59,966 bases of DNA from Minisyncoccota bacterium. GTDB lineage: Bacteria; Patescibacteriota; Minisyncoccia; Phycocordibacterales; CAIRYW01. Position 1 is the first letter of the stretch, and each line of letters starts with the position of its first letter. Under the pieces are notes generated by a model that was not told where the DNA came from, made no database searches, and saw only the letters and a program-made list of their open reading frames with translations. Positions 2,342 to 47,388 of this stretch are shown here, one piece after another. The stretch covers positions 1 to 59,966 of the forward strand of contig JBAYHV010000001.1 of NCBI GenBank assembly GCA_041665985.1, read 5' to 3'. The position numbers and the translations under genes were made by a program.

Positions 2342-2412
2342 TACGGGATCGTCTAATGGTAGGACGACGGCTTTTGGAGCCGTCTATCTAGGTTCGAGTC
2401 CTAGTCCCGTAG
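2342..2412 (+). tRNA. tRNA-Gln (anticodon UUG)
   Basis: Hand-folded cloverleaf. Acceptor tacggga/tcccgta (U1-A72), D stem gtct/ggac, anticodon stem acggc/gccgt with loop ttTTGga, T arm ctagg-ttcgagt-cctag. No encoded CCA. Confidence 0.92.
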
Positions 2413-2524
2413 CAAATGAGTGTAGCGAATTTGCTACGGGAAGTGAGTGATGTTATCACTCACGTCTAGGACTCGAAGAGGTTGAGTTTATCGCACGGAG
2501 CAAAGCGAGTACGATACGAAACCT

Positions 2525-2562
2525 GTACCGTCCATGTAATGGAAGAGACTCCTAGTCCCGTA
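2525..2562 (+). repeat. 38-nt perfect direct repeat, copy 1 (gtaccgtccatgtaatggaagagactcctagtcccgta)
   Basis: Identical to 2828-2865. It ends with the last 13 nt of tRNA-Gln. Confidence 0.9.
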
Positions 2563-2827
2563 GCAAAAGAAAGTGCTAGGTAGCACTTTCGACTAGGACG
2601 AGAACAGCGGAGCTATAATTTTTCGGAAGAAAAATTAGCGAGCTGGTGCCTAGACTAAAATTTGCGATAGGCAAATTTTAAGTCGAAGGAGAGATTCCTA
2701 GTCCCGTAGCAAAAATTTACCGTAGGAAAATTTTTCTACGGGAAGAAAGCCCTGGGAGAGCTTTCGCCTAAGGCTCGAAAACCTTTTGAGTCTAAAATTG
2801 ATTTTAAGAAAATTTTAGCCAAAAGGT

Positions 2828-2865
2828 GTACCGTCCATGTAATGGAAGAGACTCCTAGTCCCGTA
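2828..2865 (+). repeat. 38-nt perfect direct repeat, copy 2
   Basis: Identical to 2525-2562. Confidence 0.9.
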
Positions 2866-3614: not shown

Positions 3615-3723
3615 AAATTATTTGAATTAAATTGTAAAATCTTACAAATACAATTATACAACCTAAATACAATAATAGTTGCAAACAAAAATTCTGTTGC
3701 TATAATATTTCTACAATTAAATA

Positions 3724-3820
3724 CATATCAAGAGAGCGACGAGAGCCCTGGCTCAAAGACTCGCCAGCAACCCTAAAATTTTAGTAGGTGCTAAATCCAG
3801 CCCATTTGGGAATGATAACG
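3724..3820 (+). promoter_or_regulatory. SAM-I (S-box) riboswitch
   Basis: aTATCAAGAGAG...GAGAGcccTGGCtC..AAGA..GCAACC...GGTGCTAAATCCAGC...GAATGATA matches the S-box core motifs. P1 is tatca/tgata. It sits upstream of metK. Confidence 0.85.
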
Positions 3821-3837
3821 AATATTTTATATTTGAA

Positions 3838-3990: not shown

Positions 3991-4980
3991 ATGAAATGGA
4001 CAGCAGAATCAGTGACACCAAAGCACCCAGATAAGCTTTGTGATCGAATTAGTGACTCTATTTTAGATGCATGCCTTGCTCAAGATCCTTACTCTCGCGT
4101 TGCAATGGAATCTTTGGGTGGACATGGAATAGTTACAGTTACAGGCGAGCTTACAACAAATGCATATGTTGATATTCGCCAAATTGTTGAAAAGATCCTA
4201 GGAAAACCATATGGAGTTCAAATAAACGTTGTAAAACAATCAAATGAAATCGCTCAAGGAGTAAATATAGGAGGAGCAGGAGATCAAGGTGTTATGGTTG
4301 GATTTGCTACAAGAGAAACTCCAGAATTAATGCCAAAAGAAGTTATTTTAGCAAGAAGTCTTGGGAGATATATTTATGACAACTATGCATCTTTTGATGG
4401 TAAGACTCAGATCACTTGGGATTCTGATGATGATGCAATTGAAACAGTTGTAGCTTCTTTTCAAAATACAGTAAAAGCTGATCTAGAAAAATATATTAAC
4501 GAATGGCTAAAAGATAAAAAAGTAAAAACTGATCTTAAAATTCACGCAAATCCTGCAGGAGATTGGAGTATCGGAGGATTTGATGCTGATACAGGTCTAA
4601 CGGGAAGAAAAATTGTTGTAGATCAATACGGGCTTAGATGTCCTATTGGTGGAGGGGCATTCTCAGGAAAAGATTCAACAAAAGTTGACCGTTCTGGAGC
4701 ATATATTGCTCGAAAAGAGGCGGTTACAATTTTGAATTCATCAGCAGATTATAAAGAGGTAACTTTTTATCTAGGATACGCAATTGGTATTGCTGAACCA
4801 GTTTGGGCTAAAGCAATGATCGTACTCAATGATGGATCTAGGAAAGAAATAGACTACATTGACAAATTAAGCCTTTTTACACCGAACGCAATTATTGAAA
4901 CTCTAAAACTTAGAGAACCAAAATTTGCAAAAACTGCAGAATGGGGACATTTTGGAAATGATTTTGATTGGGATAAATAG
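3991..4980 (+). CDS. metK: S-adenosylmethionine synthetase (compact form)
   Basis: PDKLCDRISDSILDA, GAGDQGVMVGFA and GGGAFSGKD motifs of methionine adenosyltransferase. Preceded by the SAM riboswitch. Confidence 0.9.
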   Translation: MKWTAESVTPKHPDKLCDRISDSILDACLAQDPYSRVAMESLGGHGIVTVTGELTTNAYVDIRQIVEKILGKPYGVQINVVKQSNEIAQGVNIGGAGDQGVMVGFATRETPELMPKEVILARSLGRYIYDNYASFDGKTQITWDSDDDAIETVVASFQNTVKADLEKYINEWLKDKKVKTDLKIHANPAGDWSIGGFDADTGLTGRKIVVDQYGLRCPIGGGAFSGKDSTKVDRSGAYIARKEAVTILNSSADYKEVTFYLGYAIGIAEPVWAKAMIVLNDGSRKEIDYIDKLSLFTPNAIIETLKLREPKFAKTAEWGHFGNDFDWDK

Positions 4981-25403: not shown

Positions 25404-25976
25404 ATGATCGGATCGAAACAGAATTCTATTTATATCTTTATAGACGCTTCTAATGTTTGGAGCGTAATAAAATCTGTACGGAAATTTATTGAGTACAAAG
25501 ATTTAAAAAGTTATTTTATGAAGAAGTTTGACTCAAATAATGTTGAAGTGTTTTATTACGATGCTTATCCAAAGATCGGTACAAGAGAATATAATTTGGA
25601 TGCCAAACATAAATTTTTTACATATCTCAAAAAAGGACTTAGTTTTACTGTCAGAAAAAAAGAATTGAAAAGGATTTCGGTTGTAGATAAAAATGGAGAA
25701 TCCGTTATAGAAAAAGGAAATATGGATGTTGAGATAACTATCGATGCCATGCATTTTAAGGATAAATACAGCACAGCTGTGTTTTTTACAGGTGATTGTG
25801 ATTTTTTACCTTTAGTAAATTATTTAAAAAATGATAGCAAAAAAGTTTATATTTTTTCATCAAAGGACAGTATTTCTCATGAACTAAAAACTGGAGGAGA
25901 TGGATATTTTGATATAAGAGAAATTCCTGAATTATGGGGAAAAGGCCTAAATCATAGGGAAAGTAACATAAACTAA
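25404..25976 (+). CDS. NYN-domain (LabA/DUF88-like) putative RNase
   Basis: IFIDASN...GNMDVEITIDAM...FTGDCDFLPLV pattern of acidic residues. Confidence 0.75.
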   Translation: MIGSKQNSIYIFIDASNVWSVIKSVRKFIEYKDLKSYFMKKFDSNNVEVFYYDAYPKIGTREYNLDAKHKFFTYLKKGLSFTVRKKELKRISVVDKNGESVIEKGNMDVEITIDAMHFKDKYSTAVFFTGDCDFLPLVNYLKNDSKKVYIFSSKDSISHELKTGGDGYFDIREIPELWGKGLNHRESNIN

Positions 25977-26238
25977 AACCACCCTCAATTAAGAGGGTGG
26001 CTCTGCGATGTATAACCCTATCAGTTATGGTAAACCAATAGACTTTTATAGTATACGTGCAAGAGGTAAAAAGGCAATAGTAATTTATTAACATACTAAA
26101 GACCTTGCGATTTCGGGTAAATAAGTTAAAATATCTGAACCTAGGTAGTTTTTAGTGCAATTTTGCCTCAAATTATCCTAATTTGATCGATTTTTGAAGT
26201 TTATTTTTCTAGTTTTTATTTTATTGTATTTAAATCCT

Positions 26239-26311
26239 GGGCCCATAGCTCATCTGGTAGAGCGCTTCATTTGCACTGAAGAGGTGAGCGGTTCGAGTCC
26301 GCTTGGGTCCA
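26239..26311 (+). tRNA. tRNA-Ala (anticodon UGC)
   Basis: Hand-folded. Acceptor gggccca/tgggtcc with G3:U70, D arm gctc..gagc, anticodon loop ttTGCac, T arm agcgg-ttcgagt-ccgct. Confidence 0.92.
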
Positions 26312-26323
26312 CAATAAAAACTA

Positions 26324-26349
26324 ATCGCCTTTTTATGGGCGATTTTTTT
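26324..26349 (+). terminator. tRNA-Ala terminator
   Basis: atcgcc/ggcgat stem followed by T7. Confidence 0.7.
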
Positions 26350-26352
26350 GTT

Positions 26353-26483
26353 GTGGACCCAAAGCGAGTAAAAGATTTTACTCGCGTGCGGACTCGAAGA
26401 CCTTTTGAGACTATTTTGTGAGTTTGCGAAACAAAATATCCAAAAGGTGTACTGAAACTGTAAGTTTCGAATGTCCGCTTGGT
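26353..26483 (+). repeat. Structured module built from an inverted then a direct copy of the tRNA-Ala 3' end (same architecture as at tRNA-Gln)
   Basis: In order: gtggacccaa (26353-62), hairpin 26364-85, gcggactcgaa (26388-98), accttttg...caaaaggt stem, GTAC, gaaac/gtttc hairpin, tgtccgcttggt. Confidence 0.75.
26449..26471 (+). repeat. 23-bp perfect direct repeat gtactgaaactgtaagtttcgaa, left copy
   Basis: Identical to 27694-27716. The flanks remain partly similar for about 12 more nt. Confidence 0.9.
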
Positions 26484-26535
26484 AAAACGAAACAAAAGAG
26501 TTAAGCTATTGTCAATATTAACTAAAATTAAATAA

Positions 26536-27546
26536 ATGATAAAAATAAAATTGCTTAGATCGGCACTTGTCGGTTTGCTATTTCTATTTCCAGTTTTTGC
26601 TTCAGCTGTACATGTAAATGGTTACTACAGAAGCAACGGTACATATGTTAATAGTTATGAACGTACAGCTCCCGACGGGAATCCATACAACAATTATAGC
26701 TATCCTGGAAATTATAATCCTAATACTGGAAATATAACTGGAGGTAATTCTCAAACTTATTTAAGTAATTACTATAATAACTCTTCAAGTGGAAGTAATT
26801 ATTCATCAGGATACAGTTACCCTACTATTCCAAGTTGTCCATTAAATTCATATGCAAGTGGATCATCATGTAAATGTAACTATGGTTATTCAGTAAGTGG
26901 CTCTAGCTGTGTTTCTGATGATTCCATATGCCAAGATCAACTAGGATACAGTTCCAGTTATGATTCATTGAGTGGTAATTGTAAGTGTAGTTACGGATAT
27001 GTAATTGGAACATCTGGAAAGTGTGTAAACGCCAATAGCTACTGTTCAGATAAATTAGGAATAATGTCACAATATAATAGTTCTTCAAAAAAATGTGAGT
27101 GTATGGCAGGATACAGTTTTGACGGCTCAAGTTGTACTTACCAAGCAACAGATTATTCATACACAACTGATAATAACTACTCCTCCAATAACTCAATTTC
27201 GTGCCCAATAAATTCTCATGTTAACCCAAGCGATTCAACAAAATGTATTTGTGATACGAATTATCAGAACAACATAACAAATAATGGATGTATTTTTAAA
27301 ATAACAAAAACCAACACAGAAATTTGCCAAGATAGTTATGGTCCTAATGCAGATTGGGCTGGCACTAAAATTAGCGATACGCAATTAAATTGTAGTTGCA
27401 AGACTGATTATGTTTGGAATAATTCAAAAACTGCCTGTATTTATTATATTCCTCCATCAGTAGTTGAATCTAATTATGTTTCAGCAGATACAACTATAAA
27501 CAATTTACCTCCAAAAGTGGAACCTAAAAAAAATAGAATCGACTAA
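26536..27546 (+). CDS. Secreted Cys-rich repeat protein (signal peptide; S/Y/N-rich region; five CxC-x2-[GN]Y...C modules)
   Basis: N-terminal signal-like LLFLFPVFASA. Repeats are SCKCNYGYSVSGSSC, NCKCSYGYVIGTSGKC, KCECMAGYSFDGSSC, KCICDTNYQ...GC and NCSCKTDYVW...AC. Confidence 0.7.
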   Translation: MIKIKLLRSALVGLLFLFPVFASAVHVNGYYRSNGTYVNSYERTAPDGNPYNNYSYPGNYNPNTGNITGGNSQTYLSNYYNNSSSGSNYSSGYSYPTIPSCPLNSYASGSSCKCNYGYSVSGSSCVSDDSICQDQLGYSSSYDSLSGNCKCSYGYVIGTSGKCVNANSYCSDKLGIMSQYNSSSKKCECMAGYSFDGSSCTYQATDYSYTTDNNYSSNNSISCPINSHVNPSDSTKCICDTNYQNNITNNGCIFKITKTNTEICQDSYGPNADWAGTKISDTQLNCSCKTDYVWNNSKTACIYYIPPSVVESNYVSADTTINNLPPKVEPKKNRID

Positions 27547-27693
27547 AGTAAAAATGAACAACGCACCAAGAATTATTAAAGAAAACTCAACAACAACCAA
27601 AGCAACAAGTACTTCGTCGATAAAGACTCAAACTAAAAGCAATTGGTGGAATACTTTTATAAGTTGGTTCGGGAAATAAGAAGTGCTCTTGTG

Positions 27694-27716
27694 GTACTGA
27701 AACTGTAAGTTTCGAA
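27694..27716 (+). repeat. 23-bp perfect direct repeat, right copy
   Basis: Identical to 26449-26471. The two copies bracket the Cys-rich protein gene. Confidence 0.9.
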
Positions 27717-27728
27717 CATCCACCTGTT

Positions 27729-28055
27729 CTACGAAAAAAATCTTCCTAAAATTGCTTTCCATCCTGAACTACGTCTTCTTCCACAGCACCACATAAACCC
27801 CCAATCTATTGTAGGTTTTCCACATTGAACACATTCAACAATTTTTTCTTCATCATCACTTGTTTCAAATTTAATTTGACAATCCTCGCATCTACGAAAA
27901 TAGATCTTTCCTAATCTTGGAGGTGATTTTATATAAACGCCTATATAAATCATTTTTCCTTTGCACTCTGGACAAAATTCTTTTTTTTCGTCAAACTCAC
28001 AACTTGTCTCACATGTAGGACAAATATACTCATATTTCCTTTCAGCTTGTTTCAT
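27729..28055 (-). CDS. Hypothetical multi-zinc-ribbon protein
   Basis: Four CxxC pairs (CPTC, CPEC, CEDC, CVQC) in 108 aa. Confidence 0.55.
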   Translation of the reverse strand: MKQAERKYEYICPTCETSCEFDEKKEFCPECKGKMIYIGVYIKSPPRLGKIYFRRCEDCQIKFETSDDEEKIVECVQCGKPTIDWGFMWCCGRRRSSGWKAILGRFFS

Positions 28056-29082: not shown

Positions 29083-29844
29083 ATGGCAAATAACAATTCC
29101 TGGAAGAAAATTTTTGAAGACAATAAGATTTTGAAACATGATTTTTCTAAATCACCTTTTTATTTGTCTGCCGAAATGATTAAAAAATCAGTACAGGAAT
29201 TTACTAAGACTAGTGAAAAAGAAGTTCGTTGTCTGTGTAAAATGGATACAAGAGAAAGTCTTCCTGAAATAATGAGAAATAATAACTTAATTTTATTACC
29301 TGTAAAAAATAAATATTATGTAATTGTAAAAGGTGAAGGTTTTGTTGATATTCCTGAGATAGTAAGTCCAACTGAAATATACAATACTAAATTAGGTTTT
29401 GATTTAGAAACCTCTAAAATAGGTAATTCAGAGATGCAACATCTAGATTTCGCCTATGCATCAAGTTTAATAAGGACATTTATGGACGATCCTTCTTTAG
29501 TTCTTACAATAAGAGGGCGAAAATATACCCCTGAGTTCGATTTTAAAATTAATCAACAAAATATAAAAGTCAAAGGTGTTCAAACAGAGGTGGATGCTGG
29601 GTATGAAGGAAAAGATAAAGTTGTATTAATTGAAGCAAAAAATTCTAAAACAAAAAATACAATAATTCGGCAATTATATTATCCATTTAGACAATGGAGC
29701 GAACATACTAATAAGAATGTATATTTACTTTTTTTTGAAAAAAGAAAGAATGAATATCTTATTTGGCAGTATACATTTGAAAATAAAAATGATTATAATT
29801 CCATTAAATTGATTAAATCAAAAAAATATAAAATCAATAAATAA
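29083..29844 (+). CDS. Putative type II restriction endonuclease (PD-(D/E)XK-like)
   Basis: Sandwiched between two methyltransferases. VDAGYEG..VVLIEAKNS fits D...ExK. No family recognised by eye. Confidence 0.5.
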   Translation: MANNNSWKKIFEDNKILKHDFSKSPFYLSAEMIKKSVQEFTKTSEKEVRCLCKMDTRESLPEIMRNNNLILLPVKNKYYVIVKGEGFVDIPEIVSPTEIYNTKLGFDLETSKIGNSEMQHLDFAYASSLIRTFMDDPSLVLTIRGRKYTPEFDFKINQQNIKVKGVQTEVDAGYEGKDKVVLIEAKNSKTKNTIIRQLYYPFRQWSEHTNKNVYLLFFEKRKNEYLIWQYTFENKNDYNSIKLIKSKKYKINK

Positions 29845-42945: not shown

Positions 42946-45282
42946 ATGAGTTCCTCAAAAAGTAAAAAAACTGTCGCAAAAAAGGAAGAAGTTTTTGTTT
43001 CAAAAGTTCAAAAGAGAGATGGATCGATTGTACCTTTTAATACAGAGAAAGTAGTTTCTGCTGTATACAAATCTATGATCGCATCTGGGGAAGGCTCTCT
43101 TAAAGAAGCAGAAATGGTGGCAAATAAGGTTTTTGCTGATGTTGTAAAGATCGCAAAAAAATACAAAAACTTTGTTCCAACAGTTGAAGGAATTCAAGAT
43201 AGTGTTGAGAAGGAACTCATTTTAGGTGAATACGTAAAAACAGCGAAGGCTTACATTCTTTATCGCGATAAACGATCAAAACTCCGTGAAAAAGGACTAC
43301 AGGTTCCTGAACATTTAAAAAAATTAGTGGGTGCTAGTAAAAAATATTTCCGAACAGAGCTTGGAGAATTTATGTACTACCGAACTTATTCAAAATGGAT
43401 CGACGCAGAACAAAGAAGGGAGACTTGGATTGAAACTGTAAATCGCTACATGGCTTTCATGAAGGAAAATCTTGGCGATAAATTAAAAGAAAGCGAGTAC
43501 AAGGAAGTTGAAGAAACAATTTTGAAACAAGACGCTCTTCCTTCAATGAGACTTTTGCAATTTGCAGGAACAGCAGCAGCAAAAACAAATGTTTGCGCAT
43601 ACAATTGTTCATTCGTTGCACCAGAATGTTTTCAAGATCTTGCAGAAATAATGTACATCCTAATGTGCGGAACTGGCGCAGGATTTTCTGTTGAGAGTCA
43701 AAATGTTCAAAAGTTTCCACAAATTTTAATTCAATCAGGAGCAAAAAAATCTACATATGAAATTCCTGATAGTAAAGAAGGATGGGCTGATGCTTTAACT
43801 CACGGCATGAATGTTTGGGCAAGCGGAAAGGATGTTGAATTTGATTTTTCCAAATTGCGTCCAGCGGGAGCAAGACTAAAAACTATGGGAGGAAAATCAT
43901 CTGGCCCTGATCCGATCAGAAAACTTCTTACATTTACAAGAGAAAAAATGTTAACTCGCCAAGGAAAGAGGCTTCGCAACATCGATGTTCACGATATTAT
44001 TTGTATGATCGGTGAATGCGTTGTTTCAGGAGGCGTACGACGAAGTGCTCTTATTTCACTTTCTGATCTTGATGACAATGACATCAGAGATGCTAAAAAA
44101 GGCGCATTTTATAATACAGAACCTCAAAGAATGCTTTCAAACAACTCTGCAGTCTATATTCAAAAGCCAACAGCGGCTGAATTTATGGATGAATGGATCG
44201 CTTTGATGAAATCCGGAACAGGAGAAAGAGGCATTTTCAACAGAGGATCACTCGCAAAAACATTGCCAGAAAGAAGAATTAAGGTTTTGAAAGAAACCGA
44301 AGGATATTTTGATGCAACAGGAACAACTATTATCGGTTCTATTGGAACAAACCCTTGCGGAGAAATTATTCTTCAATCAAAACAATTTTGTAACTTAACA
44401 AACGTTGTTGCACGAGCAGAAGACACAAAAGAATCATTGCTTCGTAAAATTAGAGTTGCAACAATTATTGGAACATATCAATCAACTCTTACAAATTTTC
44501 CCTATTTATCAAAAAGATGGAAAGAAAATTGTGAAAAAGAAAGACTATTAGGAATTGGACTAGCAGGACAATGGGATAACGACATGGTAAGAAAACCACA
44601 GATCCTTGAAACTCTAAAACTAGAAACAATAAAAATAAATAAAATTTATGCAAAAAGATTCGGAGTAAACGAATCAACAGCGATAACTTGCGTAAAACCA
44701 GATGGAAACTCTTCACAAACTTTTGATTTCTCATCAGGAATGCACCCTCGTTATTCAAAATATTATATTCGAAGAATTAGAATTGCAGCAACAGATTCAC
44801 TTTTCAAAATGTTGAAGGATCAAGGAATTCCATATTTCCCAGAAGTTGGACAAAATGCTGAGAGCGCAACAACTTATGTTTTGGAATTTCCAGTTAAGGC
44901 TCCAGCGGGTTCGATCTTCAAAGATGATCTAACAGCTCTTGATCAACTTGAACACTGGAAAGTTGTGAAAGTAAATTACACAGAGCACAATCCTTCAGTA
45001 ACAATTTCAATTGGCGAGAATGAATGGATAGAAGTAGCAAACTGGATCTACACAAACTGGGATATCGTTGGAGGTCTTTCATTCCTTCCTCGAGAAAATC
45101 ACGTTTATCAACTTGCTCCATACGAAAAAATTGATGAAAAAAGATATTTAGAACTTTCTAAAAAACTAAAGAATCTAGATTACTCAAAGATTATGATCTA
45201 CGAAAAGAAGGACGAAACTGAAGTAAAAAGGGAATTAGCGTGTGTTTCTGGAGTTTGTGAGATAGATGAGATTCCAAAATAG
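42946..45282 (+). CDS. nrdJ: Class II (adenosylcobalamin-dependent) ribonucleotide reductase with an N-terminal ATP-cone
   Basis: ATP-cone VQKRDGSIVPFN.EK. Also NPCGEI, and a C-terminal Cys pair (CVSGVCE). Confidence 0.88.
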   Translation: MSSSKSKKTVAKKEEVFVSKVQKRDGSIVPFNTEKVVSAVYKSMIASGEGSLKEAEMVANKVFADVVKIAKKYKNFVPTVEGIQDSVEKELILGEYVKTAKAYILYRDKRSKLREKGLQVPEHLKKLVGASKKYFRTELGEFMYYRTYSKWIDAEQRRETWIETVNRYMAFMKENLGDKLKESEYKEVEETILKQDALPSMRLLQFAGTAAAKTNVCAYNCSFVAPECFQDLAEIMYILMCGTGAGFSVESQNVQKFPQILIQSGAKKSTYEIPDSKEGWADALTHGMNVWASGKDVEFDFSKLRPAGARLKTMGGKSSGPDPIRKLLTFTREKMLTRQGKRLRNIDVHDIICMIGECVVSGGVRRSALISLSDLDDNDIRDAKKGAFYNTEPQRMLSNNSAVYIQKPTAAEFMDEWIALMKSGTGERGIFNRGSLAKTLPERRIKVLKETEGYFDATGTTIIGSIGTNPCGEIILQSKQFCNLTNVVARAEDTKESLLRKIRVATIIGTYQSTLTNFPYLSKRWKENCEKERLLGIGLAGQWDNDMVRKPQILETLKLETIKINKIYAKRFGVNESTAITCVKPDGNSSQTFDFSSGMHPRYSKYYIRRIRIAATDSLFKMLKDQGIPYFPEVGQNAESATTYVLEFPVKAPAGSIFKDDLTALDQLEHWKVVKVNYTEHNPSVTISIGENEWIEVANWIYTNWDIVGGLSFLPRENHVYQLAPYEKIDEKRYLELSKKLKNLDYSKIMIYEKKDETEVKRELACVSGVCEIDEIPK

Positions 45283-45363
45283 TAGGTCGTGTTAAGAGGT
45301 CTTGTTTATGATATTATTATAGATATAGATTTTGAGACGAATGTAAAGTATTGAAAAAAATAG

Positions 45364-45460
45364 ATTCGTTATATTGGGGAAGTCTGGTGTAAATCCAGCA
45401 CAGTACCGCTACGGTAACCTTGAATTTTTTAAGGAAGTCCGAGTACCAATATAATGAGAA
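45364..45460 (+). promoter_or_regulatory. Cobalamin (B12) riboswitch
   Basis: GGGGAAgtcTGGTGtAAATCCAgCACAGtACCGCtACGGTAAcc...GGAAGTCCGAgtACC (B12-box-like). P1 is ttatattgg/ccaatataa. Confidence 0.8.
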
Positions 45461-45530
45461 AATTGTCTTGTCGATCCTCGAGTAAGGGATGGCGGAAACC
45501 TAAAAGTATTTAAAACTTTTGATATCCTAA

Positions 45531-45561: not shown

Positions 45562-47388
45562 ATGGAAACAAAATTTTCAACAACAGAATATGAATTTGAT
45601 TTGGAAAAATCAATAGAAGGCGAAATTAGGCCTGATAATTTTGAAATACCTAAACCTATAGAGCAAACAAATGAATTCACTCAAAGTACTGAAAGTAGTA
45701 CAAAATCTGGTTTACAGCTGGTTGTGGAAAAATATGCCATAAAAGAAGAAGATTGGAATATGACATGGAGCGGTGGAGGAGAAAGATTTGAAAAAGGAGA
45801 AATTTTTGATGAAAATGGTTCTATTACAGAAAAAATTTCGCAAGAAAACTCAGCTGATAACGCAATGTTAATAGCGCATTTTGAAATGGTGGATCATTTT
45901 AAAAGTAATTCCACTGAAGGATATGTATTGCCAGACTGGACTGTGAAATCAGAAACAGGAGAAATTCTTGAAGTAAATGTTACTGTCGCTTTTCTTGTGG
46001 ATGGTAGAATTTATTACGAAACATGGACGCATACGGCCGAACAAAAAGAATCAGAAGAGGATGAATTAATAAAAGAAGAGACAGATTCAGATGAGGTTTT
46101 AGCAGATCAAGAAATAGATTTAAATAATACAGAAGATCCTATTGTTGAGGATGAAATTGAATCAATCGAACCAGTGCTAGTTATTGCTACAGATAAAGAA
46201 ATTCAAGCTCAATCAGTAGCACAGGAAAAAACTGAAACTCTAGTCACAGAACAAATTCTTAGAAACACTGAGTCTCAAATTATAAATTCTGTTTCTGTTG
46301 AAAATACCCATATCAATGTGCAAGAAATAAACAATGTAGCACGGATTGAGATAATCATAGATGAGAATGAAAAAACAAATGATCCTATAGATAAAAATGA
46401 GACCATCGAACTAGTATCGGACATAAATTCACAGCCAGAGGTAGAAACAGAACTTGTTGTTACGGAACCAAAAATAGTTCCAGAGGATAAGCAAACCGAA
46501 GCAGCACCAATTAATAAAAAAGAAATTGTTGAAAGTGTTCACACTGAAACAGTGGTAAAAGAAACTGTTAAGGAAGTACAGACAAAAAAAGTAGAATCAA
46601 AAATTGCTGAAGAAAAAATATTGGACAAAGAGTTTGATGTAAAAGTAGTAGATGAAACAAAAGAAGTACACTTTGAAAGAAAAGAAACAGATAAAGAAAT
46701 TAAAGAAGTTTCCTCCGAAATTATTTCAGAGATCTTTTCATCAGAAAAAAGACCAACTGATGCAAGTTCTCAAAAAGAAGAAAAAGAGGCAGTTCAAATA
46801 AGAGAAGCTTCAAATAAAGAAATCAAAAAAGAAGAGAGACCTCAAACTGACAAAGCGATCGAATCGCCTTATGTTGAAGATATTAAAATAGTCCTAGAAG
46901 TAACTTCTTCTAAAATTGAGAGTGCAAATATAAAAACAGAAATTAATGAAAATCCTGCAATAAATGTCGATAAGAGTATAAAAAATGAAGTGGAAGCAAA
47001 AAAAGATATTTCAAATACTGAAAAGAAGGCATCCGAAACTAATTCATCTGAAATTGTAGAAACTTCGCCTAGAACAGTTGAAAATATCGATGAAAAAACT
47101 GTTTCTTCGATAGTTTTAGCTGAATCCAGAACACAAACAAATGAAGCCATAAGAATAAGAACAAATAGGGAGGAAGTTCAAAAAACTTCAAACCAAAACG
47201 AGTCATTCCTAAGAGCTCTTGGATTGCATAGATCGCAAAACCAAACAGAAAGGAGAGCAAGACCTTTTTATCAAACAAACACATCAAATCAACCTGCAAA
47301 TAAACAATCAAAAACTATTGTCGAAGAAAAAATAATTCCTTCAACCACAAATGCATTAAACGGTATTACTTTGAAAAGAGCTGCATAG
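45562..47388 (+). CDS. Uncharacterised 608-aa highly acidic protein (globular ~170-aa N-terminal domain, then a long E/K/T/V/I-rich low-complexity region)
   Basis: A 1.8-kb uninterrupted ORF in AT-rich DNA. No signal peptide or TM helix and no recognisable family. Lies directly downstream of the cobalamin riboswitch. Confidence 0.7.
   Translation: METKFSTTEYEFDLEKSIEGEIRPDNFEIPKPIEQTNEFTQSTESSTKSGLQLVVEKYAIKEEDWNMTWSGGGERFEKGEIFDENGSITEKISQENSADNAMLIAHFEMVDHFKSNSTEGYVLPDWTVKSETGEILEVNVTVAFLVDGRIYYETWTHTAEQKESEEDELIKEETDSDEVLADQEIDLNNTEDPIVEDEIESIEPVLVIATDKEIQAQSVAQEKTETLVTEQILRNTESQIINSVSVENTHINVQEINNVARIEIIIDENEKTNDPIDKNETIELVSDINSQPEVETELVVTEPKIVPEDKQTEAAPINKKEIVESVHTETVVKETVKEVQTKKVESKIAEEKILDKEFDVKVVDETKEVHFERKETDKEIKEVSSEIISEIFSSEKRPTDASSQKEEKEAVQIREASNKEIKKEERPQTDKAIESPYVEDIKIVLEVTSSKIESANIKTEINENPAINVDKSIKNEVEAKKDISNTEKKASETNSSEIVETSPRTVENIDEKTVSSIVLAESRTQTNEAIRIRTNREEVQKTSNQNESFLRALGLHRSQNQTERRARPFYQTNTSNQPANKQSKTIVEEKIIPSTTNALNGITLKRAA

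Follow-up and report, generated by a model that had tools for sequence, protein, structure and literature searches.

The first 59,966 nucleotides of contig JBAYHV010000001.1 (assembly GCA_041665985.1, a Minisyncoccota bacterium; forward strand), hereafter called the window, hold two tRNA genes according to ARAGORN and Rfam: tRNA-Gln at 2342-2413 and tRNA-Ala(TGC) at 26239-26312. One hairpin-rich module follows tRNA-Ala, three follow tRNA-Gln, and the module behind tRNA-Ala is the subject of this report. It carries copies of the end of its host tRNA in both orientations around a structured core, and a gene for a cysteine-rich protein lies downstream of it. It is one copy of a large, Patescibacteria-wide family, and we give about an even chance to the proposition that the members are non-autonomous insertion elements that copy the end of the host gene when they insert.

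The sequence copied by the Ala module, X, is the 3' part of tRNA-Ala from the T-loop onward (26292-26312). Beyond a spacer, X returns as an inverted copy, X', made of two arms. The acceptor arm, X'a, contains gtggacccaa (26353-62) as part of an inverted repeat of 18 nt that includes the tRNA trailer (26303-20 versus 26345-62, 94% complementary). Where the 5' strand has G3 facing U70, X'a has an A, and it also extends into the trailer; it must therefore be the complement of the 3' strand and not a copy of the 5' strand. The T arm, X'b (gcggactcgaa, 26388-98), is complementary to 26292-302 at 11 of 11 positions. The core begins with a long hairpin, P2, which has a proximal helix (ACCUUUUG-A-G against C-CAAAAGGU) and an apical part with a GAG...CGAA motif. 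A block ACCTTTTGAG...CCAAAAGGTGTAC is common to 26400-52 behind tRNA-Ala and 2781-2831 behind tRNA-Gln, and its 13-mer CCAAAAGGTGTAC occurs exactly in the window only downstream of the two tRNAs. The core ends with a 23-mer containing the hairpin P3 (gaaac-tgtaa-gtttc, 26454-68, loop UGUAA), and the GTTTCGAA of the 23-mer mimics the T-arm sequence GGTTCGAA. This constant GTTTCGAA is followed by a T and then by the direct copy GTCCGCTTGG at 26473-82, which belongs to a downstream copy of the tRNA end, X(down). The fold of 26286-26490 is far more stable than that of dinucleotide shuffles (z = -13). A preliminary description, made from the letters of the window, had listed these motifs with their positions, and every one of them is there, far above chance (Table 1).

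Table 1. Coordinates of the tRNA-Ala module, its surroundings and the tRNA-Gln sister locus in the window; R1 is a covariance model built from 118 module copies
Feature	Position	Strand	Evidence or remark
Host gene tRNA-Ala(TGC)	26239..26312	+	ARAGORN; Rfam tRNA 64 bits; CCA not encoded
Spacer L1, tRNA to inverted arm	26313..26344	+	Bidirectional terminator-like hairpin at 26323-26344
X'a, reverse complement of tRNA trailer and acceptor 3' strand	26345..26362	+	Inverted repeat I3
Scaffold hairpin (hp) gcgagtaaaa/ttttactcgc	26364..26385	+	Splits the inverted arm at the acceptor/T-stem junction
X'b, reverse complement of T-stem 3' strand and T-loop	26388..26398	+	Inverted repeat I17
P2 long hairpin	26400..26448	+	Alignment A1, RNAalifold
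23-mer GTACTGAAACTGTAAGTTTCGAA: junction GUAC-UG, hairpin P3, then GAA	26449..26471	+	Exact match
X(down), decayed direct copy of tRNA 3' end (tGTCCGCTTGGt)	26472..26483	+	12/16 positions match tRNA-Ala
Interposed gene, 336-aa protein, 20 Cys, signal-peptide-like N-terminus	26536..27546	+	Open reading frame (ORF)
41-codon ORF, probably not a gene	27554..27679	+	Its end overlaps the H2 remnant
Truncated second module: 3' half of sub-module H2 (AATAAGAAGTGCTCTTGTGG) fused to GUAC-P3-GAA	27675..27716	+	Partial R1 match
Sister locus: tRNA-Gln and three different modules	2342..2865	+	Each module ends in a copy of the tRNA-Gln 3' end
R1 match, Ala module	26392-26471		79 bits
R1 match, Gln module 3	2773-2850		72 bits
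R1 match, Gln module 1	2471-2547		28 bits
R1 match, partial GUAC-P3	27676-27716		18.5 bits

The array behind tRNA-Gln, with which the preliminary description had compared the Ala locus, is equally real. Its modules lie at about 2414-2565, 2566-2711 and 2712-2865, copies of the tRNA-Gln 3' end lie at 2400, 2551, 2697 and 2854, and the array folds with z = -10.6. When R1 was searched against the window, it matched in four places only, two of them within this array. The same model also detects dozens of diverged additional copies among the loci that we fetched.

Beyond the window, modules are numerous and, where the matches listed carry a label, confined to one part of the bacterial tree. A genome scan with the pattern ACCTTTTGAG-N20-45-CCAAAAGGTGTAC, using one genome per species, returned at least 119 module loci, all in assemblies of Patescibacteria, the candidate phyla radiation (CPR). 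Carriers among the matches listed include Paceibacterota, 'Saccharibacteria', Kaiser-, Taylor-, Nomura- and Lloydbacteria, further metagenome-assembled genomes (MAGs) and one single-cell genome. The 23-mer alone was found in at least 119 metagenome contigs, which were labelled Patescibacteria or carried no label. Neither the 23-mer nor the P2 pattern had any match in the 2.9 million viral contigs of IMG/VR, implying that the element is not phage-borne. Rfam placed no family on the modules in the window, in 26200-27800 at E<=10, or in eight loci including long forms at E<=1; at threshold, its matches in the window were the tRNAs and two riboswitches only. In the literature on structured RNAs and tRNA-linked elements of the CPR we found no description of such an element.

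Members are protein-less, rich in hairpins and about 90-300 nt in size. On the strand of the host gene, the short form reads X(up), spacer L1, X', P2, RUAC-NG, P3 and X(down). The spacer is either a terminator-like hairpin or a conserved loop of the GAACGNAGUGAA type. At tRNA hosts, X' is composed of the acceptor arm, an A, the scaffold hairpin, GU and the T arm, and it ends in the T-loop complement CGAAR. The order acceptor arm, gap, T arm is kept in 67 of the 68 elements that have both arms; the gap, mostly 22-26 nt, folds as a hairpin, and some of the hairpin sequences are found at more than one locus. P2 has a bulged A and the apical GAG...CGAA motif, and P3 has a stem of 4-6 bp with the loop UGUAA. 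A sub-module, H2, optionally stands between RUAC and P3. Long forms possess extra conserved blocks between X' and X (GCCGGAG..CGAGGCGG, GGUGAG-hairpin-CGCAAG, a 3' hairpin and GUGACC).

How closely do the arms follow the host gene? Among the 125 matches listed from the genome scan, 59 have a tRNA on the same strand within 600 nt upstream, and in only 2 is the nearest tRNA within 600 nt on the opposite strand. For the 23-mer, 78 of the 125 matches listed lie within 200 nt downstream of a same-strand tRNA. We compared the arms with tRNA sequences in 141 tRNA-adjacent copies representing 18 tRNA identities, scoring mean matches out of 10. The inverted T arm reached 9.1 against its own tRNA (6.4 against shuffled sequence, 7.3 against a tRNA of other identity) and the inverted acceptor arm 7.7 (6.35 and 6.3). 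Corresponding values for the direct copy were 8.0 for the T part (5.85 and 6.65) and 8.3 for the acceptor part (6.1 and 5.7). The earlier proposal that the outer arms vary with the tRNA, while the inner scaffold is conserved, is thus borne out well beyond the two loci of the window: many further tRNA genes carry modules, and the arms track the identity of the adjoining tRNA in preference to others. The same core also occurs at the ends of protein genes, repeatedly at rplK and in addition at the sampled loci L017, L063 and L073 (L-numbers denote loci throughout). There, the direct repeat takes in the final codons together with the stop codon, immediately followed by the inverted copy.

The duplicated target is variable in length, 10-35 nt. 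Uninterrupted direct identity begins at T54 of the tRNA in 30 of 65 copies and 5-6 nt later in 16 of 65, and the listed examples have 1-2 extra nt between the constant end of P3 and X. The copies have since diverged: there are 186 aligned positions where the tRNA and the downstream copy are not identical, and X' agrees with the tRNA at 165 of them and with the downstream copy at 8, so that X' and X(down) do not compensate each other. Mismatches between X(up) and X' comprise 53 G.T, 75 A.C and 157 others, without an excess of wobble pairs. Judged by these substitutions, the arms behave as decaying neutral copies, not as selected helices. A separate observation concerns modules of a 'CGCAAG type' that are located inside partial tRNA copies next to an intact tRNA (L014 2640-2860, L029 5400-5620 and L002 2730-2900). 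The partial copies consist of the 5' half upstream, or break at the junction of variable loop and T arm, so that tRNA copies broken in the T-loop or the variable loop exist in several arrangements.

The core shows the covariation expected of a conserved structured nucleic acid. Alignment A1, analysed with RNAalifold, has double changes in 10 of the 19 pairs of the predicted helices. Each P3 pair has changed doubly in 18-70 of the 118 sequences, one position being CG in 43, AU in 37, UA in 25 and GC in 8, and the distal P2 helix covaries as well. Since the pattern of the genome scan fixed the proximal P2 helix, its variation was read from copies chosen by the 23-mer alone. Variants such as CCCGAUUG/CAAUUGGG, ACCUUGCC/GACAAGGU and AGGUUGCC/GACAACCU, among others, keep the pairing, and 88 distinct copies selected in this manner gave 616 Watson-Crick, 43 G.T and 24 A.C pairs. 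On the question of which strand folds, the comparison of G.U with A.C pairs is mixed: P3 and the scaffold hairpin contain few mismatches of either kind, in similar numbers, and G.U is in modest excess in P2. One recurrent G.U in P2 may weakly favour folding of the plus strand.

Comparison of related contigs at tRNA-Ser(ACT) defines the unit that comes and goes. Four contigs share the upstream flank and three of these the downstream gene; in these three, the same native terminator follows the last copy of X. The inserted unit is hence the series spacer, X', core and X, placed between the tRNA end and the native flank, and by the same token the spacer hairpin of the Ala module belongs to the inserted unit. 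Although the contigs come from close relatives, this one site holds different units: L217 and L132 have one short module each, with different spacers and distal P2, L148 has one long module, and L156 has a long module plus a short module truncated at its 5' side. Conversely, near-identical scaffolds stand at tRNA-Arg, tRNA-Lys(UUU) and tRNA-Lys(CUU) on contigs of a single MAG, CAYUPH01 (L001, L008 and L010). Among the neighbours of about 240 loci no recombinase or transposase recurs, only housekeeping genes do, and Pfam gave no recombinase or transposase domain in the window ORFs scanned around both tRNAs.

Other sequences use tRNA-Ser ends too. In L156, L209 and L234, AGTCGTGCTAG(C/T)(A/G)C stands directly after the encoded CCA end of tRNA-Ser (...CCGCCA), and in L156 it opens an insert of about 530 nt that ends in a CGAGAC..GCCCG motif. 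In L197 (1204-3044) and L231 (89-1284), ORFs for large serine recombinases adjoin or overlap tRNA-Ser genes in divergent pairs, at which modules are present too, and a homologous ORF lies about 770 nt upstream of a module in L154 (62-1688); these ORFs may represent integrase-bearing elements that use the same tRNA.

The preliminary description had further read the 23-mer as a direct repeat bracketing a cargo gene. Within the window the 23-mer does occur exactly at 26449-71 and 27694-716 and nowhere else, with an expectation of zero matches at up to three mismatches in 100 shuffles, and both copies fall inside a direct repeat of 60 nt with 72% overall identity. The bracket interpretation, however, has to be given up. 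The 23-mer is the constant GUAC-P3-T-loop part of the family and thus a common dispersed repeat rather than a duplication made by this insertion, and its second copy is the GUAC-P3-GAA part of a truncated module, in which only GUAC-P3 scores with R1. That the repeat is dispersed had been named as a possible objection, coupled to its being unrelated to tRNA loci; the first half applies and the second does not, given the proximity of most listed copies to a tRNA. With a full module before it and a truncated one after it, the gene for the Cys-rich protein lies between two modules. The flank behind the second 23-mer, CATCCACCTGTTC, was considered as a decayed end of tRNA-Ala or of another tRNA and had no significant match in our data set.

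The H2 sequence of the truncated module sits between RUAC and P3 in L021 and L035. As a hairpin sub-module (GACUUUAUUUUCUUA...UUAGAAAAYAAGAAGUGCUCUUGYGG), it is seen at 27675-27694 of the window and in L021, L035 (two copies), L047 and L075, and its place inside modules varies, being either between RUAC and P3 or in the spacer.

Module-gene-module arrangements recur elsewhere. We counted 13 intervals of 0.5-4 kb between same-strand modules, mostly with one to a few ORFs, the longer of which are mutually unrelated; they include a Fic-domain protein (L108) and two successive single-gene units (L239). The latter two units, at 98-1200 and 1685-2415 between modules after tRNA-Ser-type repeats, have common ends of their own: a hairpin with CGAGACAC-ATG stands at the start of each and GGTCAAG..CTTGACCAACCACAGTTCTAAC-CGAGACAGCCCG at its end. 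From these shared ends, they look like a second, gene-carrying type of element at the same sites.

For the 1.2-kb interval of the window, ORFs and domains confirm the reported contents, a Cys-rich protein that looks secreted and a 41-codon ORF, the latter with the reservation given in Table 1, and likewise the restriction-modification (R-M) cluster that follows. The genes after the interval encode a D12 methyltransferase, a DUF6996/6997 protein and an N4/N6 methyltransferase; the DUF6996/DUF6997 protein (29083-29844), lying between the two DNA methyltransferase genes, is probably the restriction component. The family of the Cys-rich protein is widespread in the CPR, and the closest homologues (59-65% identity) are in other contexts. 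No tRNA was found near the homologues in those loci for which DNA was available, and no module stands beside the homologue in L244, the sole locus read. One homologue follows a Ddl gene, as in the window. In L244, the homologue is followed by a D12 methyltransferase gene, again as in the window, and direct repeats of 34 nt (1-34 and 407-440, ATC(T/G)CCACCTCAAAAGGCAAGCACAAAAAGCAGC) surround small ORFs upstream of it.

How might such modules reach the ends of so many genes? We infer that they are mobile and pass through a single-stranded intermediate. We envision a scenario whereby a module inserts either at the 3' end of a tRNA gene, with the junction in the T-loop, or at the end of a protein gene, within the last codons and the stop codon; the duplicated end would leave the host gene intact, and the native flank would be displaced downstream. 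The core would be the selected part, probably required as a folded single strand of top-strand DNA or RNA, and insertion would fall to an enzyme whose gene lies elsewhere in the genome. The target would supply the sequence of the arms, newly made or rewritten when the element arrives or thereafter, and they would decay later. Repeated arrivals might produce arrays, as at tRNA-Gln, and accessory genes such as that for the Cys-rich protein may become enclosed between modules. By analogy, a topology that would give the observed order is a single-stranded circle of X, spacer, X' and core that undergoes one strand exchange at the 5' edge of X. A module could conceivably acquire its arms for a new host by short-patch template switching in quasi-palindromes, seeded by the T-loop TTCGAA, which is palindromic and universal. 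The preliminary description had considered the pattern hard to reconcile with a transposon that has fixed terminal inverted repeats. We agree that such a transposon does not fit. All inverted repeats at the termini derive from the host gene and change from host to host. Its suggestion of a mechanism templated by the tRNA gene is plausible: X'a is the exact complement of the 3' strand and the arms resemble neutral copies, whereas the placement of the arms in slots speaks against a single copying event.

Several considerations weigh against an insertion element. We observed no insertion event, no empty allele of the exact locus, no free intermediate and no mobilising enzyme. The slots between spacer motif, scaffold hairpin and P2 cannot come from one continuous copying of the target, and the acquisition of arms for a new host gene is left unexplained. 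The conserved junction nucleotides, the apical GAG...CGAA motif and the recurrent plus-strand G.U would also fit a functional RNA, and tandem identical modules could stem from slippage between X repeats instead of new insertions. Finally, the sampled loci were picked by core motifs and the frequencies are therefore biased.

Alternatively, the modules may work as structured RNAs that are transcribed together with tRNAs and mRNAs as their 3' trailers, with the arms as pairing partners. This we hold to be unlikely, though it accounts for a good part of the data: strict co-orientation with the host gene, strong predicted folds, covarying helices with invariant RUAC, UGUAA and GAG...CGAA across distant CPR lineages, the G.U that recurs on the plus strand at one P2 position, and the lack of a terminator-like site between tRNA-Gln and its modules. 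In a predicted fold, X(down) and X'a-hairpin-X'b might form a closing helix resembling acceptor and T stem, and by analogy the topology recalls that of a tRNA mimic or of a type-I hammerhead. Such an RNA might be a tRNA-like element for processing or decoy, an antisense guide aimed at the 3' half of the tRNA, or a small ribozyme in which substrate arms flank a three-way-junction core. Many copies, that of tRNA-Ala included, nevertheless sit behind an intrinsic-terminator-like hairpin. Arm mismatches lack a wobble bias and X' and X(down) lack compensation, which speaks against such an RNA; the model gives no role to X(down), to the arrays or to the turnover at orthologous sites, and G.T and A.C being about equally rare in P3 and the scaffold hairpin does not support it, nor does the failure of every Rfam ribozyme and RNA family to match even at E<=10. 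Particular RNA models were also tried and rejected. P3 is not an anticodon arm, despite its CU-GUA-AG loop like that of tRNA-Tyr, as positions 32 and 38 covary as Watson-Crick pairs; a hammerhead has a similar topology, yet the CUGAUGA/GAAA core is absent; and the P1 helix and internal guide sequence of a group I intron are excluded by a core that is far too small and has no Rfam match. An H/ACA-like pocket fails because the two arm pairings leave no target dinucleotide unpaired between them; to our knowledge, H/ACA guide RNAs are known only from archaea and eukaryotes.

It is also conceivable, but in our view decidedly unlikely, that the modules are scars or att-proximal ends of integrase-driven tRNA islands of the phage, integrative and conjugative element (ICE) or tycheposon kind, with the direct copies as attL and attR and the bodies mostly lost. 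The direct repeats do begin in the T-loop, a classical crossover site of integrases; Williams is said to have described classes of tRNA att sites in 2002. The end of the host gene is restored, stop codons included, accessory genes lie between modules, variable R-M genes follow tRNA-Ala, and the serine recombinase ORFs occur by tRNA-Ser in L197 and L231 and near the module in L154. Yet the great majority of the roughly 240 loci have no associated integrase, a single integrase family cannot cover more than 18 tRNA ends and protein-gene ends on one scaffold, X' and a covarying core are foreign to known att sites, complete units measure only 90-170 nt, and the viral contigs searched yielded no copy. 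A purely local origin, by template switching or fold-back at the inverted repeats of T arm and terminator followed by gene conversion that spread a common hairpin, seems highly improbable to us. In its favour, T arm and terminator provide inverted repeats by nature, the arms complement the 3' strand in exact Watson-Crick fashion and the palindromic TTCGAA flanks the core on both sides; but it cannot account for a conserved, covarying core of 75 nt common to hundreds of unlinked loci in distant genomes, protein-gene ends among them.

A further idea, which we consider quite unlikely, is that the arms are working guides instead of scars. The module would then be a protein-free programmable device whose split antisense arm and sense arm pair with a chosen gene end and direct a host enzyme, or catalysis by the core itself, to insert the module there and rebuild the end. 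If true, this would amount to a new nucleic-acid-guided integration or a new class of ribozyme, native to CPR bacteria.

Returning to an insertion element that copies its target, we can ask which described system it resembles. Like tRNA-targeting islands, such as those of phages and ICEs or the tycheposons of Prochlorococcus, the modules duplicate the tRNA 3' end from the T-loop and leave the gene intact, and arrays in which cargo genes separate partial tRNA repeats build up as integration is repeated. The direct copy of the tRNA 3' end (8.0-8.3 matches out of 10) with its start at T54 in 30 of 65 copies corresponds to the island hallmark of a T-loop crossover. Unlike islands, the modules encode no integrase, as judged from window ORFs around both tRNAs and from neighbours of about 240 loci, serve more than 18 tRNA ends and protein-gene ends with one scaffold, and add an inverted target copy and a covarying hairpin core. 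In integrative mobile elements exploiting Xer recombination (IMEX) of the CTXphi type, host XerCD integrates a folded single-stranded attP hairpin that mimics the target duplex. A circle of X, loop, X' and body with one strand exchange yields the order X-loop-X'-body-X, a likeness that is topological analogy only; the modules are not known to involve Xer, a circle or a phage, targets here are many gene ends of unrelated sequence, and neither the tRNA segment from T-loop to 3' end nor the protein-gene ends contain the dif-like 28-bp XerC/XerD site.

With IS200/IS605 and with repetitive extragenic palindromes (REPs), their mosaic elements (BIMEs) and REP-associated tyrosine transposases (RAYTs), the modules share small hairpins after a conserved tetranucleotide (GTAG in REP, RUAC here), and with REPs and BIMEs also an extragenic location at 3' ends and mosaic sub-modules. 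In IS608, the flanking target pairs with a short guide that the element carries internally. The guide pairing of IS200/IS605, however, is 4-5 nt as against arms of 10-25 nt here, and REPs have neither host-derived arms nor a direct target copy. No TnpA/RAYT (Y1 HUH) gene was seen among the locus neighbours, whole genomes not having been searched. Integron attC sites are likewise defined by structure, variable in sequence, folded as single strands and served by an enzyme in trans, and cassettes form one-directional arrays with single promoterless accessory genes between sites. The module consensus lacks R''-L''/L'-R' boxes and a GTTRRRY core, no integrase gene is adjacent, and module arrays, unlike integrons, are anchored at tRNA ends without IntI or attI and have arms that copy the host gene.

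The bridge (seek) RNAs of IS110/IS1111 also combine a conserved RNA scaffold with variable segments matching both target strands. They reside, however, inside an element beside a DEDD recombinase gene and use guides of 4-9 nt in internal loops for adjacent half-sites, whereas both module arms cover the same 10-25 nt, and modules are solitary or arrayed between housekeeping genes with no DEDD/Tnp ORF next to them. The 178-bp repeats at E. coli tyrT are tandem units downstream of a tRNA, each with its last 19 nt, and plant mitochondrial t-elements are acceptor/T-arm mimics at transcript ends that act as processing signals; neither has an inverted arm, a core common to many genes or a family-wide distribution. 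DNA transposons and miniature inverted-repeat transposable elements (MITEs) have terminal inverted repeats of their own and a short target-site duplication of fixed length, both of which the modules lack. Searches with Rfam 15 gave no credible match on modules for hammerhead, twister, pistol, hatchet, HDV-like, group I/II intron and tmRNA families, nor for HEARO/omega RNAs and ROOL/GOLLD; resemblance to self-cleaving ribozymes may be purely topological, a three-way junction with substrate-like arms. On this basis we rate the module as a new kind of element, which fails the tested defining features of the known families considered, a statement that does not extend to IS200/IS605-REP or to self-cleavage.

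Some neighbouring features of the window deserve mention in their own right. The NYN-domain gene beside tRNA-Ala (25404-25976) has its closest homologues, 80% identical, in L120-L123. They lie between hsdS and hsdR of a type I R-M locus in L120 and L121 and downstream of R-M methylase and specificity genes in L122 and L123; these are R-M loci without tRNA-Ala. Their context suggests that the NYN gene travels with defence loci. An S-adenosylmethionine (SAM) riboswitch at 3722-3821 (Rfam, 55 bits) stands directly upstream of an S-adenosylmethionine synthetase gene (3991-4980), an ordinary arrangement. An adenosylcobalamin (AdoCbl) riboswitch at 45352-45501 (61 bits) is found just after a ribonucleotide reductase-like gene (42946-45282), whose Pfam matches include the insertion domain of the B12-dependent enzyme, and before an ORF at 45562-47388.

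If the modules are mobile, then an element of about 100 nt, without any protein, settles harmlessly at many essential genes by copying the end of the gene in both orientations. Among the transposons, integrative elements, REP-like repeats and RNA families with which we compared it, none is described that does likewise. Patescibacteria, in which the family is abundant throughout, are a huge radiation with tiny genomes and are poorly understood. Downstream of tRNAs, the family appears to shape how variable regions and single-gene accessory 'cassettes' are arranged. A practical corollary is that the tRNA-end repeats of these unannotated elements can mislead predictions of tRNAs, att sites and islands in CPR MAGs. 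The enzyme involved and the step by which the arms are written could reveal a new principle of recombination or of guidance.

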